IMG/VR virus record: IMGVR_UViG_638276137_000001 | Location: 1-64,000 of that record | DNA from: a virus | Taxonomy: Duplodnaviria > Heunggongvirae > Uroviricota > Caudoviricetes > Thumleimavirales > Hafunaviridae | Length of the DNA stretch: 64,000 bases | Strand: one strand, 5' to 3' | Shown here: positions 10,117 through 40,889 of the stretch, piece by piece | Layout of the letters: each line of letters begins with the position of its first letter | Numbering within the stretch: the first letter of the stretch is position 1 | Translations under genes and position numbers: made by a program | The notes under the pieces: model-generated | The model's database searches: none | Told to the model about the DNA's origin: nothing | What the model saw: the letters and a program-made list of their open reading frames with translations, nothing else

Positions 10117-10370
10117 CTGCGGTGTCACCCCGGTAGTATGGAAGAAGACCTTGAGAAGATAGAGCAAGCCGACTACGACTACTTCTACTCCCTTCGGAGG
10201 AAGGCGTGTTGGCGTCGGCGTGGAAAGTCGAAGCCCCGCCGCGACGTGTCTGAGATAATTGACATAGAGCGGCGGGAGTGGCGAGAGTAAACGGCGAAAC
10301 GCCCCACCGTGGGGCGTCGTCGGGAGTTGGTCATCCCGGCTGTTGACGAGCCGACCAGACACCTCTAAAA

Positions 10371-18364: not shown

Positions 18365-18419
18365 CCTAAGACTCAAATCGGTATCTTTAAGTCTTAGGCT
18401 CCCGTCTAATAGAGTGAGG
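18365..18419 (+). promoter_or_regulatory. Composite conserved element, copy b (plus orientation), upstream of tRNA-Arg and the SPFH gene
   Basis: aagactcaaatcggtatctttaagtcttaggctcccgtctaatagagtgagg. The TTTAAG lies about 25 nt upstream of the conserved GTCTAATAGAGTGAGGAGG leader. Confidence 0.5.
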
Positions 18420-18508
18420 AGGTCGCGGTGGCCTCCCGACTCGTTTGCTTGGCAGAATCCTGTCATAGTTTGTCATTGGTGTCCAGCCACCGCCTCGCGG
18501 TGGTTTTT

Positions 18509-18583
18509 GGGGACGTAGCTCAGCTCGGACAGAGCGTTCGGCTTCTAACCGAAAGTGCGCGGGTTCAAATCCCGTCGTCTCCG
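18509..18583 (+). tRNA. tRNA-Arg (anticodon TCT)
   Basis: Manually folded cloverleaf. Acceptor GGGGACG/CGTCTCC with one G-U pair. D-arm GCTC...GAGC. Anticodon stem TTCGG/CCGAA with loop CTTCTAA. T-arm GCGGG-TTCAAAT-CCCGT. Confidence 0.8.
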
Positions 18584-20650: not shown

Positions 20651-20708
20651 CTTCTAAGAATCAAATAGGTATCTTTAAGTCTTAGTCCCACGTCTAATAG
20701 AGTGAGGA
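20651..20708 (+). promoter_or_regulatory. Composite conserved element, copy c, upstream of tRNA-Asn
   Basis: aagaatcaaataggtatctttaagtcttagtcccacgtctaatagagtgagg. Confidence 0.5.
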
Positions 20709-20735: not shown

Positions 20736-20808
20736 GCCGAGGTAGCTCAGTTGGTAGAGCGCCTGACTGTTAATCAGGTAGTCGAAGGTTCGAGTCCTTC
20801 CCTCGGCG
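20736..20808 (+). tRNA. tRNA-Asn (anticodon GTT)
   Basis: Perfect cloverleaf. Acceptor GCCGAGG/CCTCGGC. D-arm GCTC-AGTTGGTA-GAGC. Anticodon arm CCTGA-CTGTTAA-TCAGG. T-arm GAAGG-TTCGAGT-CCTTC. Confidence 0.85.
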
Positions 20809-20827: not shown

Positions 20828-20897
20828 CTGGACGTGTTCAAGGAGAACAGCTCGGCTGTAAACCGAGTGTAGGGCGGTTCGATTCCGCCCGTCCAGA
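20828..20897 (+). tRNA. tRNA-Tyr-like (anticodon GTA) with a shortened D-arm
   Basis: Acceptor CTGGACG/CGTCCAG is perfect. Anticodon arm CTCGG-CTGTAAA-CCGAG. T-arm GGCGG-TTCGATT-CCGCC. The D region is only about 14 nt (GTTC-AAGGA-GAAC), so it may be a pseudo or virus-type tRNA. Confidence 0.45.
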
Positions 20898-37061: not shown

Positions 37062-37270
37062 AGACAGCGAACACCTACATCTACTCGTTCTATCTCGGGT
37101 TCTCGGTTCAAGCGTTCCTGCTTCTCTTTTTGAAATCTGCGTTTTACGGGACGTTGGTGGTTTCGCTGTTGAATATGCTGGCGACGATGTTCGTTTATCC
37201 GTGGCTCTTTGTGTGGCTGATGAAGGGTTCGTGGTCGGTTCCGCTCCGACTGTTGGAGCCACCTCAGTAG
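37058..37270 (+). CDS. Small membrane protein with two predicted TM segments
   Basis: 70-aa ORF with hydrophobic stretches FYLGFSVQAFLLLFL and LVVSLLNMLATMFVYPWLFVWLM. Confidence 0.4.
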   Translation: MKTANTYIYSFYLGFSVQAFLLLFLKSAFYGTLVVSLLNMLATMFVYPWLFVWLMKGSWSVPLRLLEPPQ

Positions 37271-37515
37271 TCACCAAAGAGTTAAATCAGCATCTTTAAG
37301 TCATATAGTACCGTCTGGTACTATACGACGAAACATCCGAATTAGCTCGCGCGAGCGCATAACGCGGGCGAAATATCTATCTTAGTTATATACTCTTAGT
37401 AGTTTACTACCGTTAGTTACCTACTTTGAGTTTTACCACATCGAGGTTGTTCACTCAACTAAGACAGTACCGTAGTAGAACACTCAGAGTTATACACTCT
37501 ACCTAAACAGAACTA

Positions 37516-38880
37516 ATGATTGTAGAAGGAGAAAGCACGACAGCAGAGGTACACCTACCAGAAGAAGAAGTGGAAGACGGACTCCAAGAGGAAATACAGG
37601 AGATGGTTGACCACGAGGCGTTCCAGAACCCCGTGAAGTTCATGCCGGACTGTCACGGGGGACTCGGCCCGGCGTGTATCGTCGGGTTCTCGATGCCGCT
37701 GACTGACCGCGTGATTCCGAAGACGGTCGGGGGCGACATTGGGTGTGGCATGACGGCGGCACGACTCGATGTGTCGAAAGCCGACCAGCCCTCCGACATA
37801 GACGACTTCCGTGCGGTGAACAAGGAGGTGCGCGACCGGGTTCCGATGGGGACGGGTCGCGTTCACAAAGAACAGAAGGTCGAACTTGAGTGGTCGTTCC
37901 CGTGGTGGAAGGCGAACGAGAAGCTACTCCACTTCTACGACGCGATGGACTTCGACTACGAGAGTAGGGACGAGGGGATGTTCCGCCCGTCTTACTTCGA
38001 GAAGATGTGTAAGCGGGTCGGAATCGACGTGGACTACGCAATCCGCTCTCTCGGGACGCTCGGCTCGGGTAATCACTTCATCGAGCTGGCTGAGTCCGAG
38101 GTGTCCGACGAGATGTGGGTGGTCGTTCACTCCGGCTCTCGGAACCTCGGTCAGAAGGTCGCGTCGTACTGGCAAGAGAAGGCGACCGAACACCGTGACG
38201 CCGACGTGAAGTGGAGTGAGATGGGCGAGCGGTTGAAGCACTACACGAACCCGGACGGCTCCCCGGATTGGGAGAAGATTCGGCTCTACAACGAAGGCGA
38301 GGAAATCGAGCGTATCGGGTCGGAGATTGAGTCCTACTCCCCGGACTCGAACCGGAACAAAGACCTCGACTACCTCGAAGGCCGCGAAGCCTACGGGTAT
38401 TACTACGACATGATGCTCGCTCAGACTTACGCGAGCTTCAATCGCCTTCTCATGGTTCAGGAGGTGGCCGAAACCCTCGATGCGTCGATTACCAAGTTCC
38501 TCAACTCCCCGCACAACTACGTGGACTTCGAGGATATGGTGATTCGGAAAGGCTCCACCCGCGCTCAGAACGGTGAGCTGTTCACCATCCCGATGAACAT
38601 GGAAGACGGAACCCTGCTCTGCCGAGGTCGCGGAAACCCCGAATACAACTACTCGGCTCCCCACGGCGCGGGCCGACTCGGTTCCCGTGGATGGGCGCAC
38701 TCGGAGTTCGACGCCGACGAAGCCCGCAAGCGGATGTACGACAACGGAACGTACTCTGCTCGGGTTCCGGGCGACGAAGTGCCGGAAGCGTACAAGCCAC
38801 CGGAGCTAATCGAGGAACACATCACCCCGACTGCCGAAGTCGTTGACCGGCTGAAGCCCGTGATTAACTTCAAGAAATAG
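37516..38880 (+). CDS. rtcB: RtcB-family 3'-phosphate/5'-OH RNA ligase
   Basis: RtcB motifs GGDIGCGM, GTLGSGNHFIE, HSGSRNLG and C-terminal SAPHGAGR (nucleophile His). Confidence 0.9.
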   Translation: MIVEGESTTAEVHLPEEEVEDGLQEEIQEMVDHEAFQNPVKFMPDCHGGLGPACIVGFSMPLTDRVIPKTVGGDIGCGMTAARLDVSKADQPSDIDDFRAVNKEVRDRVPMGTGRVHKEQKVELEWSFPWWKANEKLLHFYDAMDFDYESRDEGMFRPSYFEKMCKRVGIDVDYAIRSLGTLGSGNHFIELAESEVSDEMWVVVHSGSRNLGQKVASYWQEKATEHRDADVKWSEMGERLKHYTNPDGSPDWEKIRLYNEGEEIERIGSEIESYSPDSNRNKDLDYLEGREAYGYYYDMMLAQTYASFNRLLMVQEVAETLDASITKFLNSPHNYVDFEDMVIRKGSTRAQNGELFTIPMNMEDGTLLCRGRGNPEYNYSAPHGAGRLGSRGWAHSEFDADEARKRMYDNGTYSARVPGDEVPEAYKPPELIEEHITPTAEVVDRLKPVINFKK

Positions 38881-38894
38881 AACCCTGTTTGCCA

Positions 38895-38929
38895 CCCCTG
38901 ACCCCCCGTGGTCAGGGGTCTTTTTTATT
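38895..38929 (+). terminator. Stem-loop plus oligo-T terminator after rtcB
   Basis: 9-bp perfect stem cccctgacc/ggtcagggg with loop ccccgt, followed by tctttttta ttttaa. Confidence 0.55.
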
Positions 38930-38971
38930 TTAAGTAGTAACTTTATCAGACCTCCAACCGAACATCTGTAT

Positions 38972-39439
38972 ATGGCATCTGAAGAACCAGATGGTGTCTT
39001 GACGCTGGAACTTTCGGGGGATGACGGACTCCAAGCGTTTAATAGATTCATCGAGGAGACTGGTTTTAGCGATACAGTCAATAGCATCAAGGTCACAATC
39101 GAGGCCGACTCCCCGATTGATTTGACTGAATACATCACGGGGAGTGAGATAGAGAAAAGAGAGTCTGACCCGCCTGATGTGGTTACGTTTGAAGACGGCT
39201 CTCGGACTCGAAAGCTGGCGGAGTTTCTATACGAATACAACGGCGACGGGTGGTACACGACTAACGAAATTCGGGATTCTCTCACCGAGGATTGTGGGAT
39301 TGACCCCGACGACGTGAGCCAAATTCTGTGGGAGCTATCCGAGCGTGACGTTGTGGAGAAGCGCCCCTTCGATGGGGATGGTCGGAAGAAGGAGTATCGC
39401 CTGAACGAGCTTGGTTTTCGCTCGGTCGAAGCTCTTTGA
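38972..39439 (+). CDS. Putative winged-helix DNA-binding protein
   Basis: C-terminal segment WYTTNEIRDSLTED...SQILWELSERDVVEKRPFDGDGRKKEYRLNELG looks like a wHTH (PadR/ArsR-like). It is the last plus-strand gene before the integrase. Confidence 0.5.
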   Translation: MASEEPDGVLTLELSGDDGLQAFNRFIEETGFSDTVNSIKVTIEADSPIDLTEYITGSEIEKRESDPPDVVTFEDGSRTRKLAEFLYEYNGDGWYTTNEIRDSLTEDCGIDPDDVSQILWELSERDVVEKRPFDGDGRKKEYRLNELGFRSVEAL

Positions 39440-40633: not shown

Positions 40634-40818
40634 CGTCCGTTCCCCCCACTCTGTGTTCCCGCGCGTGCGGGGTTACACGTTATAGTGTCCTGACAACTAC
40701 ACAAATCGCAAGACGGCGCGGTGGTGGTCGTTTGTGGGTAGAGTGCGTTCTTGGTTCGCATTGTTTCGTCTCCAAGAAGCACGCAAAATGGGGTGAGAAT
40801 CCCCGTGAAGGCTGAAAG

Positions 40819-40889
40819 CCTGAGGGGGGATTTGAACCCCCGGTCTCGTCCTTACCAAGGACGCGCTTTACCGAGGTGGCCTTCGGCCC
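40819..40889 (-). other. tRNA-like fragment (T-arm GGGGG-TTCAAAT-CCCCC plus a Thr-like GGT anticodon arm) without a matching 5' acceptor strand; candidate attP core
   Basis: On the minus strand it reads ...CGTCC-TTGGTAA-GGACG...GGGGG-TTCAAAT-CCCCC-CTCAGGC. I could not find a 5' strand that pairs with CTCAGGC, so it looks like a partial or degenerate tRNA next to the integrase. Confidence 0.35.

Follow-up and report, generated by a model that had tools for sequence, protein, structure and literature searches.

Halorubrum virus HF2 encodes an intact RtcB-type RNA ligase that is loosely coupled to its tRNA genes and may serve general RNA repair

Among the closest described parallels to the gene studied here are systems of bacteriophages. 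In T4, Pnkp and Rnl1 answer the host nuclease PrrC by resealing tRNA with 2',3'-cyclic phosphate and 5'-OH ends; the host nuclease, the trigger and the genetic dependence have all been demonstrated. In mycobacteriophage, T5 and related work, evasion relies on viral copies of particular tRNAs, and here the targeted host tRNA and the features that make the viral tRNAs resistant are known. Evasion based on tRNAs and evasion based on ligases are both established or proposed in bacteriophages: Iyer et al. 2021 discussed RtcB/Rnl ligases supplementing phage tRNAs, and Liu et al. 2021 proposed tRNA repair by RtcB for archaeal tailed viruses. The tRNA-repair idea for HF2 RtcB and the idea of RNA ligases and tRNAs as counter-defence in phages are both, then, already published. 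We know of no RNA-repair counter-defence and no tRNA-targeting immunity that has been demonstrated in Archaea.

RtcB-like ligases are found in actinobacteriophages, Listeria A511, Bacillus SPO1-like phages and the haloviruses HCTV-1/-5 and HGTV-1, where they are virus-encoded, often together with tRNA genes, and, like the one in HF2, are all presumed to act in RNA repair. HF2 resembles T4 in concept, in that a virus enzyme would reseal tRNA with the same ends, but T4 uses a heal-and-seal route (kinase-phosphatase plus ATP ligase) whereas RtcB is a one-step GTP-dependent ligase, and the host nuclease that HF2 would answer is hypothetical. It also has viral copies of particular tRNAs, as mycobacteriophages and T5 do, but its tRNA set varies among close relatives and matches amino acids that the virus over-uses.

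The stretch of DNA that we analysed, called the window below, is 64,000 nucleotides long and is identical, at 0 mismatches, to positions 1-64000 in the published genome (AF222060.2) of Halorubrum virus HF2, which infects archaea of salt lakes. HrrHF2_430 is a real gene, and its assignment to RtcB is already in GenBank. The features that matter are as follows.

18366-18421: class I repeat IR2 (annotated), 5' of tRNA-Arg, with its beta motif at 18384-18393
18509..18583, + strand: tRNA-Arg(TCT), found by ARAGORN (Rfam 67.9 bits), no intron and no encoded CCA
20655-20704: class I repeat IR3 (annotated), about 30 nt upstream of tRNA-Asn, with its beta motif at 20672-20681
20736..20808, + strand: tRNA-Asn(GTT), found by ARAGORN (Rfam 78.4 bits), opening the 18-kb transcript whose other end is rtcB
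20828..20897, + strand: tRNA-Tyr(GTA) with a short D-arm, found by ARAGORN (Rfam 48.1 bits)
37275..37332 (approximate), + strand: class I intergenic repeat IR4.5, lying about 190-220 nt 5' of the rtcB start codon and serving as a virus-specific early-middle promoter
37516..38880, + strand: rtcB (HrrHF2_430), 454 aa, from the ORF list; GenBank label "RNA-splicing ligase RtcB"
38894..38929, + strand: terminator-like hairpin and T-run, ACCCCTGACCccccgtGGTCAGGGGT then CTTTTTTATT, beginning 14 nt past the rtcB stop codon

An earlier note on this DNA had called the product an unmistakable RtcB, and a profile search agrees: Pfam PF01139 scores 190.4 bits against a cut-off of 27, and residues 32-453 align with profile positions 7-425 of 426, which is the full length. 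The motifs named in that note (GGDIGCGM, GSGNHF, HSGSRNLG and SAPHGAGR) are present, 4/4, and align to the catalytic residues of the E. coli and P. horikoshii enzymes. In the alignments, D74, C77, N186, H187 and H205 correspond to D75, C78, N167, H168 and H185 of E. coli RtcB and to D95, C98, N202, H203 and H234 of P. horikoshii RtcB, while H333, H383, R209, R387 and R391 correspond to E. coli H281, H337, R189, R341 and R345. For His333 we rely on the alignment with E. coli RtcB; residues 286-412, searched with phmmer in the PDB, had spurious weak matches only. We take D74, C77, H187, H205 and H333 to be the ligands of the two-metal site, with N186 adjacent to it, and these residues, N186 included, are invariant across 26 relatives. 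H383, in the HGAGR motif, is presumably the nucleophile that forms the covalent His-GMP intermediate. It matches P. horikoshii H404 as well as E. coli H337, and R387 and R391 are conserved too. Replacement of the nucleophile histidine had been set beforehand as an outcome that would speak against the earlier reading, but His383 is intact, and because the HF2 enzyme as a whole is intact and under purifying selection (dN/dS 0.14-0.24 for rtcB), this objection fails.

The AlphaFold model of HrrHF2_430 has a mean pLDDT of 90.4 and a pTM of 0.87. All of its Foldseek matches in the PDB at E<=0.001 (16/16) are RtcB, the best being 4DWQ_A with an E of 1e-21 and a TM of 0.67. The protein scores under the cut-off of every NCBIfam RtcB model, including the bacterial equivalog PRK09588 (97.3 bits, cut-off 407) and the release-factor-H-coupled TIGR03073 (63.1 bits, cut-off 271.8), and there is no prfH-like gene beside HF2 rtcB. 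Judging from its sequence and predicted fold, we believe that HrrHF2_430 is an intact RtcB RNA ligase that is apparently active.

Compared with cellular RtcB (P. horikoshii PH1602, PDB 4DWQ; E. coli), the HF2 protein has the Pfam family and the fold in common, and the metal ligands, the GTP-site arginines and the nucleophile histidine are identical. Its identity is about 20% with the proteins of solved structure and 41-44% with the chromosomal RtcB of haloarchaea, and with the latter it has in common an insertion between the HSGSR and HNY motifs that E. coli RtcB does not have. In length it falls about 35 residues short of the cellular proteins of haloarchaea, and it differs from cellular enzymes in being virus-encoded, in having a virus-specific promoter and in having no archease or RtcA partner. 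We considered the reading that HF2 RtcB is unrelated to the host-type enzyme, as its phmmer score to P. horikoshii RtcB is about 39 bits, and rejected it because chromosomal homologues of 489-490 aa (Halococcoides, Natronobiforma) have 41-44% identity and the same insertion. One chromosomal haloarchaeal rtcB lies among genes for ribosomal proteins, a GatB-domain amidotransferase subunit and Pus10, and another near an aCPSF1-like RNase, NucS and MutS, both of which are housekeeping contexts.

HrrHF2_430 belongs to a haloarchaeal/haloviral RtcB radiation. RtcB occurs in further haloviral lineages, namely HCTV-1/-5, HGTV-1 and the metagenomic contigs L015 and L022 (partly from PMC8651126), and a homologue is present in 676 phage records. 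The HF2 lineage forms a branch of its own, with about 41-44% identity to the HCTV-1/HCTV-5 proteins and 26-34% to the bacteriophage ones. In an unbootstrapped NJ tree the HCTV-5 protein clusters with the chromosomal RtcB of Halococcoides, which suggests separate acquisitions of RtcB.

Published transcription data (PMC8707807) give the early-middle timing, the promoter activity and the transcript structure of this region. IR4.5 is active as a promoter and its start site has been mapped, and IR3 drives transcript F52, which is 18 kb long, includes PolB and RtcB, and has tRNA-Asn/Tyr and RtcB at its opposite ends (PMC8707807). In the sequence, IR4.5 contains the IR-specific beta motif TCTTTAAGTC at 37293-37302, a motif with 7 copies in the window against 0.18 expected by chance, and a 9-bp inverted repeat, ATAGTACCG/CGGTACTAT (written per strand). 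The beta motif is also found upstream of rtcB in HRTV-10, HRTV-5, Serpecor1 and the distant contig L015. The class I repeats IR2, IR3 and IR4.5 precede tRNA-Arg, tRNA-Asn/Tyr and rtcB respectively, and this layout is conserved in relatives. The remaining four class I IRs serve unrelated genes of the early-middle phase, including ThyX/Dcd, RNR and nuclease genes, so the common promoter type is not specific to RtcB and the tRNAs. The 5' leader of rtcB has no Rfam match, and its fold is not clearly better than that of shuffles (z = -1.66).

Downstream, the strong terminator described earlier is there, as a 10-bp hairpin with 7 G-C pairs at 38894-38919 followed by CTTTTTTATTTT. That rtcB closes the replication module is roughly right: the neighbours include other duplicates of host functions (ThyX, Dcd, RNR and PolB), and 3' of the gene there is one winged-helix gene and then an oppositely oriented integrase. 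The integrase adjoins a partial tRNA-Thr (40817-40887, - strand), which is the published attP. No archease, RtcA, Pnkp or Hen1 partner gene is annotated or was detected in HF2. Nor did Pfam scans of the 5 small ORFs upstream and the winged-helix ORF downstream of rtcB, and of four larger genes in the vicinity of the tRNAs, reveal an archease, a cyclase, a kinase-phosphatase or any further partner in RNA repair.

The tRNA set reported for 18.5-20.9 kb stands for Arg, Asn and Tyr. The fourth tRNA-like element does not, as none was found in 18.0-21.2 kb at Rfam E<=1, and the partial tRNA-Thr is the sole other tRNA-like sequence in the window. None of the viral tRNAs has an intron. HF2 proteins contain about 2x as much Asn and about 1.5x as much Tyr as haloarchaeal chromosomal genes, and this over-use is a simpler, ordinary reason for carrying tRNA-Asn and tRNA-Tyr. 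The AGA codon is used 2.9 times per 1000 in HF2 against 1.8 per 1000 published for Halorubrum; because this compensation is weak, the usage argument holds for Asn and Tyr and not clearly for Arg.

RtcB is present in 41/41 Haloferacalesvirus records (a set defined by PolB at >=87% identity), and the tRNA sets vary. The group's most conserved tRNA is tRNA-Asn, found in HRTV-10, HRTV-5, Serpecor1, Hdep-prov1 and contig L012. tRNA-Tyr is also in HRTV-10 and Serpecor1 and is absent from HRTV-5 and Hdep-prov1, while tRNA-Arg has been deleted in Serpecor1 and HRTV-8 and a Gly-TCC is present in HRTV-10, all with RtcB constant. Members of the same group without RtcB include two integrated proviruses and one 78.6-kb contig, and RtcB is therefore dispensable in some settings. 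The earlier note had asked whether relatives without rtcB are without tRNAs as well; the nearest ones, the provirus Hdep-prov1 (L011, reached via a protein search and an exact-protein look-up) and contig L012, keep tRNA-Asn. Overall, tRNAs are about as common beside RtcB-less relatives (3/4 loci, a small sample) as beside RtcB-bearing ones. The proposed coupling of RtcB to replacement tRNAs is not supported among related viruses, where gain and loss are not joint. One related RtcB-less contig has an ATP-dependent RNA ligase (PF09414) directly after PolB and another contig has both enzymes; since the PF09414 ligase replaces or joins RtcB, RNA-ligase function recurs and is swappable in this virus group.

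Further afield, HCTV-1 has tRNA-Gln 2.7 kb upstream of RtcB, L022 has tRNA-Asp and tRNA-Glu 8.4 kb downstream, and tRNA-Trp lies downstream by 0.5 kb in Corynebacterium phage Dina and by 4.7 kb in Microbacterium phage Cen1621. Small actinophages were tried as tRNA-less counter-examples with RtcB and rejected, both being complete genomes with a single tRNA-Trp near RtcB. Brevibacterium phage AGM3 has just a 197-aa RtcB fragment, which is uninformative. We dropped locus L016 as a relative, as it is cellular and low-GC. A scan of genome contigs with the PD-(D/E)XK nuclease, aimed at proviruses, found nothing, and a scan of viral contigs returned known isolates and two short contigs only. Among cultured archaeal tailed viruses, RtcB is found only in lineages carrying tRNAs (PMC8651126). 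This family-level association is confounded with genome size and covers only 3-4 independent lineages. We concluded that RtcB and the tRNAs are loosely coupled and are separable accessory genes rather than one module.

In our judgement the job of HF2 RtcB is most likely general RNA repair that keeps translation going in infection, and we put the probability of this at roughly 55%. The intact enzyme under selection, its distribution, its two routes of expression, the swappable ligase function in the group and the tRNAs near RtcB in other viruses speak for this reading, with which published opinion agrees. RtcB is made in the early-middle phase by two routes, from its own IR4.5 promoter and from the 18-kb IR3 transcript, on which it is the last long gene. 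According to the established mechanism of the family, it would guanylylate itself on His383 using GTP and Mn2+, convert an RNA end with a 3'-phosphate, or with a 2',3'-cyclic phosphate that has been opened, to the activated form RNA(3')pp(5')G, and join the activated end to a 5'-OH end. Its substrates could be viral or host tRNAs, possibly rRNA, cut by metal-independent ribonucleases, and the cutting enzymes could be host toxins, abortive-infection effectors or stress RNases. Our own results cover the identity, active site, fold and selection of the enzyme and the sequences of its promoter and terminator elements; the ligase activity, the substrates and any defence that is countered we infer. 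By homology, RtcB chemistry would fit the ends left by such RNases, and the intact HF2 enzyme should be able to seal anticodon-nuclease products. We see RtcB as an accessory 'insurance' gene that travels with the virus's tRNA genes without depending on them.

A narrower reading is that RtcB and the viral tRNAs act together as a module dedicated to countering a host anticodon nuclease that targets Arg, Asn or Tyr tRNAs, in the manner of T4 Pnkp/Rnl1 against PrrC. We consider this unlikely, although what is known of the RtcB family fits the products of such nucleases and bacteriophages offer precedents. The class I promoter type and the one long transcript common to the tRNAs and RtcB would suit a module, but the same promoters serve ThyX/Dcd, RNR and nuclease genes. 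Likewise, the confinement of RtcB to tRNA-bearing lineages among cultured archaeal tailed viruses would suit it, but here the genome-size confounding and the 3-4 independent lineages count against it, as do the tRNA-Asn kept by RtcB-less relatives and the shifts of Arg, Gly and Tyr tRNAs under a constant RtcB. The viral demand for Asn and Tyr, 1.5-2x that of haloarchaeal genes, is a further point against a module. Our search turned up no description of an anticodon nuclease in the haloarchaeal hosts. A preprint that surveyed 253 Halobacteria genomes and 20 virus-susceptibility-typed haloarchaeal strains with PADLOC makes no mention of tRNA, PrrC, RloC, PARIS or Septu, and so of no system of the anticodon-nuclease type, and it reports no defence that cleaves tRNA or rRNA. 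The commonest candidate defence in it is a PIN-domain protein; from PIN nucleases one would expect 3'-OH/5'-P ends, and RtcB cannot join such ends. The survey and the PIN point weigh against general RNA repair as well, as do the group members without RtcB, the lack of partner repair genes in HF2 and the tRNAs beside RtcB-less relatives.

It is also rather improbable that the extra RtcB is a housekeeping supplement, sustaining normal tasks (the splicing of host pre-tRNAs that contain introns, and further RNA ligations of the cell) when host gene expression falls or a larger tRNA pool is needed. The nearest homologues in cells are indeed the chromosomal haloarchaeal enzymes in housekeeping neighbourhoods, with the lineage-specific insertion that E. 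coli RtcB lacks, and HF2 rtcB sits among the host-function duplicates ThyX, Dcd, RNR and PolB. However, the viral tRNAs are intron-free, so the virus's own RNAs need no splicing. With 41-44% identity, the viral lineage is divergent and old and not a recent copy of a host gene, and relatives can swap in an ATP-dependent ligase with a different end chemistry.

We give very little credence to the idea that RtcB religates or circularises viral RNA cut by a type II hammerhead ribozyme at 10292-10359. The ribozyme match lies above the cut-off (41.1 bits against 37), hammerhead products carry the 2',3'-cyclic phosphate and 5'-OH ends that are exactly what RtcB needs, and the 41 Haloferacalesvirus records that have RtcB also conserve the ribozyme region. 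Because both are core to the genus, though, this co-occurrence is uninformative. There is a single ribozyme, so that nothing points to an excised segment whose two ends would match; it lies 27 kb from rtcB on a different transcript, and many RtcB-bearing viruses have no known ribozyme. Sealing of DNA 3'-phosphate/5'-OH breaks, reported for E. coli RtcB, is just as improbable here: rtcB does lie at the end of a DNA replication/nucleotide metabolism block, after PolB, ThyX and Dcd, but nothing specific favours it, related viruses have RtcB in other contexts and near tRNAs, and its place can be taken by RNA ligases from a different family.

The RNA-repair reading of HF2 RtcB adds little as it stands to the GenBank label, to the tabulated presence of the gene (Haloferacalesvirus, Druskaviridae, HGTV-1) and to the published suggestions of tRNA repair and counter-defence. 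A bolder and quite speculative idea is that haloarchaea hold an unrecognised antiviral system that cleaves tRNA or rRNA and leaves a 2',3'-cyclic phosphate, and that hafunavirus RtcB, with the tRNAs as a second layer, defeats it. Hosts of HF2 and its relatives are in culture, and a panel of strains whose susceptibility is known has been published. If the idea is true, this would be the first case of an archaeal virus shown to answer a defence with RNA repair, and it would offer a handle for finding the archaeal nuclease. Our comparison also gives a useful negative result for these viruses, namely that RtcB and the tRNAs should be treated as separable accessory genes.

The window corresponds to nt 1-64000 of Halorubrum virus HF2 (AF222060.2; Hafunaviridae, Haloferacalesvirus) with 0 mismatches over the two stretches that we compared with the record, 1-45000 and 41000-64000. 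The gene of interest is

37516-38880, + strand: rtcB, open reading frame of 454 aa, HrrHF2_430 in GenBank ('RNA-splicing ligase RtcB')

The earlier note read this gene as an RtcB, and the open reading frame, Pfam match, catalytic residues and fold all agree. HrrHF2_430 matches the Pfam RtcB model end to end at 190 bits (cut-off 27), and it scores far under the cut-offs of the NCBIfam RtcB models, including the bacterial equivalog. Solved RtcB structures are distant, at ~39 bits with the single sequence and 98 bits with a 26-sequence profile. We mapped residues using E. coli RtcB from MG1655. In the alignment, HF2 D74, C77, N186, H187 and H205 correspond to E. coli D75, C78, N167, H168 and H185, and H333, H383, R209, R387 and R391 to H281, H337, R189, R341 and R345; none of the ten varies among the 8 aligned sequences. 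A HMMER alignment to P. horikoshii RtcB is concordant (D95, C98, N202, H203, H234, H404). We take these residues to be metal ligands and the final histidine to be the guanylylated nucleophile. A replaced nucleophile, which the earlier note had considered, is not what we see, as H383 aligns with E. coli H337 and P. horikoshii H404. The AlphaFold model is confident (pLDDT 90.4, pTM 0.87), and its significant PDB matches are 16 chains, RtcB only, the best being the P. horikoshii RtcB-GMP/Mn complex (TM 0.67). Among HF2, HRTV-10, HRTV-5 and Serpecor1, rtcB has a dN/dS of 0.14-0.24. Because of the residues, the fold and the dN/dS, we conclude that HrrHF2_430 is an intact RtcB under selection. The terminator claimed to follow it is also real, a hairpin and T-run at 38894-38929.

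The motif TCTTTAAGTC occurs at 37293-37302, in the 246-nt AT-rich gap 5' of rtcB. This motif is the signature of class I intergenic repeats and occurs 7 times in the window, with 0.18 copies expected.

37275-37332, + strand: IR4.5, class I repeat before rtcB, identified from the motif and the promoter study and not in the GenBank feature table
17197 (-), 18384, 20672, 34498, 47894 (-), 48083: the TCTTTAAGTC copies other than the one in front of rtcB (37293)

Class I repeats were shown to be strong promoters, and the rtcB copy was named IR4.5, in the 2021 promoter study (PMC8707807). That study also describes an 18-kb transcript from IR3 that includes PolB and RtcB, and names 'tRNA repair' among the functions of this HF2 genome region. 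tRNA-Arg (IR2), tRNA-Asn/Tyr (IR3) and rtcB (IR4.5) each have one of the seven copies immediately upstream. The same layout is found in HRTV-10, HRTV-5 and Serpecor1, and in a distant metagenomic contig (L015) whose RtcB is 45% identical to that of HF2. This layout points to co-regulation of rtcB and the tRNA genes, yet not a specific one, because the remaining class I repeats serve as promoters of nuclease, ThyX/Dcd and ribonucleotide reductase genes. IR4.5 itself has a 9-bp inverted repeat (ATAGTACCG..CGGTACTAT) in place of the gamma motif, and an rtcB leader starting there would be unusually long, ~190 nt.

Besides RtcB and its terminator, the three tRNAs of the earlier note held up: tRNA-Arg(TCT), tRNA-Asn(GTT) and tRNA-Tyr(GTA) were all found by two methods. 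The proposed fourth tRNA-like element did not, being absent from 18.0-21.2 kb even at a permissive threshold. None of the three has an intron, and CCA is not encoded. The window has one other tRNA-like sequence:

40817-40887, - strand: partial tRNA-Thr, which is the published attP

Asn and Tyr make up 4.3% and 4.1% of residues in HF2 proteins (86 annotated genes in 1970-41275; 11,995 codons), compared with 2.0-2.3% and 2.7% in haloarchaeal chromosomal genes (two samples of ~6,000 codons each, not from the true host). Two of the three tRNAs of the virus carry these two enriched amino acids. AGA, the codon of tRNA-Arg(TCT), is rare in HF2 (2.9 per 1000) and also in Halorubrum (published as 1.8 per 1000). 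From these usages, demand-driven supplementation accounts for tRNA-Tyr and for tRNA-Asn, the only conserved tRNA, with no need to assume a defence role, and it fits tRNA-Arg less well.

The earlier note had proposed that RtcB and replacement tRNAs form a module against a host anticodon nuclease, and suggested checking whether relatives lacking RtcB also lack the tRNAs. L011 to L014 below are the closest RtcB-less relatives.

Loci without RtcB, and loci and genomes with it
L011, provirus Hdep-prov1: no RtcB at the syntenic site, IR4.5-like motif kept; tRNA-Asn at its usual place
L012, 78.6-kb contig: no RtcB; tRNA-Asn and an odd tRNA
L013, 64-kb contig: no RtcB, PF09414 ligase directly after PolB; tRNA-Gln
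L014, 53-kb contig: no RtcB; no tRNA found
L015, 43-kb contig: RtcB and PF09414 ligase; two tRNAs
HF2: RtcB; tRNA-Arg, -Asn, -Tyr
HRTV-10: RtcB; tRNA-Gly, -Asn, -Tyr
HRTV-5: RtcB; tRNA-Arg, -Asn
Serpecor1: RtcB; tRNA-Asn, -Tyr, with a 28-nt deletion in tRNA-Arg

The tRNAs are not always lost with RtcB: 3 of 4 RtcB-less loci, a small sample covering ~10 kb either side of one gene in each, carry a tRNA. From these loci and from the shifting tRNA sets within the RtcB-bearing genus, we conclude that RtcB and tRNAs are separable. In other viruses a tRNA is repeatedly near RtcB, which is suggestive. HCTV-1 has tRNA-Gln 2.7 kb upstream, and the L022 locus has tRNA-Asp and tRNA-Glu 8.4 kb downstream; the viral contig L023 has RtcB and is tRNA-free within 10 kb. 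Corynebacterium phage Dina (44 kb; L018 41800-43590) and Microbacterium phage Cen1621 (49 kb; L019 42837-48856) were picked as likely examples of RtcB without tRNA. Each has exactly one, a tRNA-Trp(CCA) that closely follows the RtcB-like gene, at most 0.5 kb (Dina) and 4.7 kb (Cen1621) away.

Some of these loci have further features. In Hdep-prov1 (L011 18460-20975) a GmrSD/DUF262-type (type IV restriction-like) gene on the opposite strand adjoins the site behind the IR4.5-like motif, where rtcB is missing. In the hafunavirus-like metagenomic contigs, the ATP-dependent RNA ligase PF09414 takes the place of RtcB in L013 (16912-17874) and stands alongside it in L015 (1-809), which suggests that viruses of this group exchange their RNA ligases. 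Beside ordinary tRNAs, ARAGORN also called tRNA-like genes whose anticodons have four bases (gtga, ttga; L012 15663-15734, L015 1202-1274); these may be degenerate tRNA genes or artefacts of the prediction.

RtcB is present in all 41 records sharing PolB at 87% identity or more. In the other Hafunaviridae genera, none of the 12 records had a DNA match, and organism counts from a protein-level search allow at most one of the 12 a homologue. With tblastn, homologues were found in 676 of 50,697 phage records. Liu et al. 2021 (PMC8651126) reported RtcB together with tRNAs in Hafunaviridae and Druskaviridae; their tables list RtcB in Haloferacalesvirus (3-5 tRNAs), Druskaviridae (1 tRNA) and HGTV-1 (36 tRNAs), and all tRNA-less viruses listed also lack it. 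This association covers only 3-4 lineages, which also have the largest genomes. An HNH homing-type endonuclease gene adjoins rtcB in about ten relatives (HRTV-8, -14, -17, -26, -24, HJTV-2, HSTV-3, HJTV-3, HRTV-15 and Serpecor1; at the counterparts of window positions 37270-37516 or 38880-38972), and in some Bacillus phages a homing endonuclease splits rtcB itself.

The closest homologues of HF2 RtcB are haloviral and metagenomic proteins (57-89% identity). A broad next tier at 35-48% includes RtcB from the chromosomes of Halococcoides and Natronobiforma. Both of these genes have housekeeping neighbours, in one case ribosomal proteins, Pus10 and a GatB-domain amidotransferase subunit, in the other an aCPSF1-like RNase, NucS and MutS. 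HF2 RtcB shares an insertion with chromosomal haloarchaeal RtcB that the E. coli protein lacks. An NJ tree without bootstrapping gives the HF2 group its own branch in a star-like haloarchaeal/haloviral radiation and groups HCTV-5 RtcB with a chromosomal gene. The viral rtcB was apparently acquired long ago from the RtcB pool of haloarchaea, and other such acquisitions probably took place.

RNA repair of cyclic-phosphate/5'-OH ends is the best-supported function of HrrHF2_430. That it mends such breaks during infection, most probably in tRNAs, we put at 0.55. Liu et al. 2021 had proposed the repair idea for archaeal tailed viruses. Iyer et al. 2021 described phage tRNAs as 'supplemented' by RtcB and ATP-grasp ligases, which mend damage from RNase effectors, and tRNA-based evasion is established among bacteriophages. 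A dedicated module of RtcB and replacement tRNAs against an anticodon nuclease seems doubtful to us, because the two are inherited independently and no target nuclease is known. In a 2025 preprint surveying defences in 253 Halobacteria genomes and in 20 strains whose susceptibility to these viruses is known, the terms tRNA, PrrC, RloC, PARIS and Septu do not occur. A PIN-domain protein and an ATPase-nuclease are the most frequent of its candidate defences. The window also has a hammerhead ribozyme:

10292-10359, + strand: type II hammerhead ribozyme, between a small ORF and a Rad3-like helicase gene (Rfam 41.1 bits, cut-off 37)

Cleavage by it would leave 2',3'-cyclic phosphate and 5'-OH ends, and such products formally qualify as substrates of RtcB. 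The region is kept in 41 of 41 Haloferacalesvirus records; the published annotation lists the ribozyme without a function. The gene rtcB was already known, and its proposed role in RNA repair had been published.
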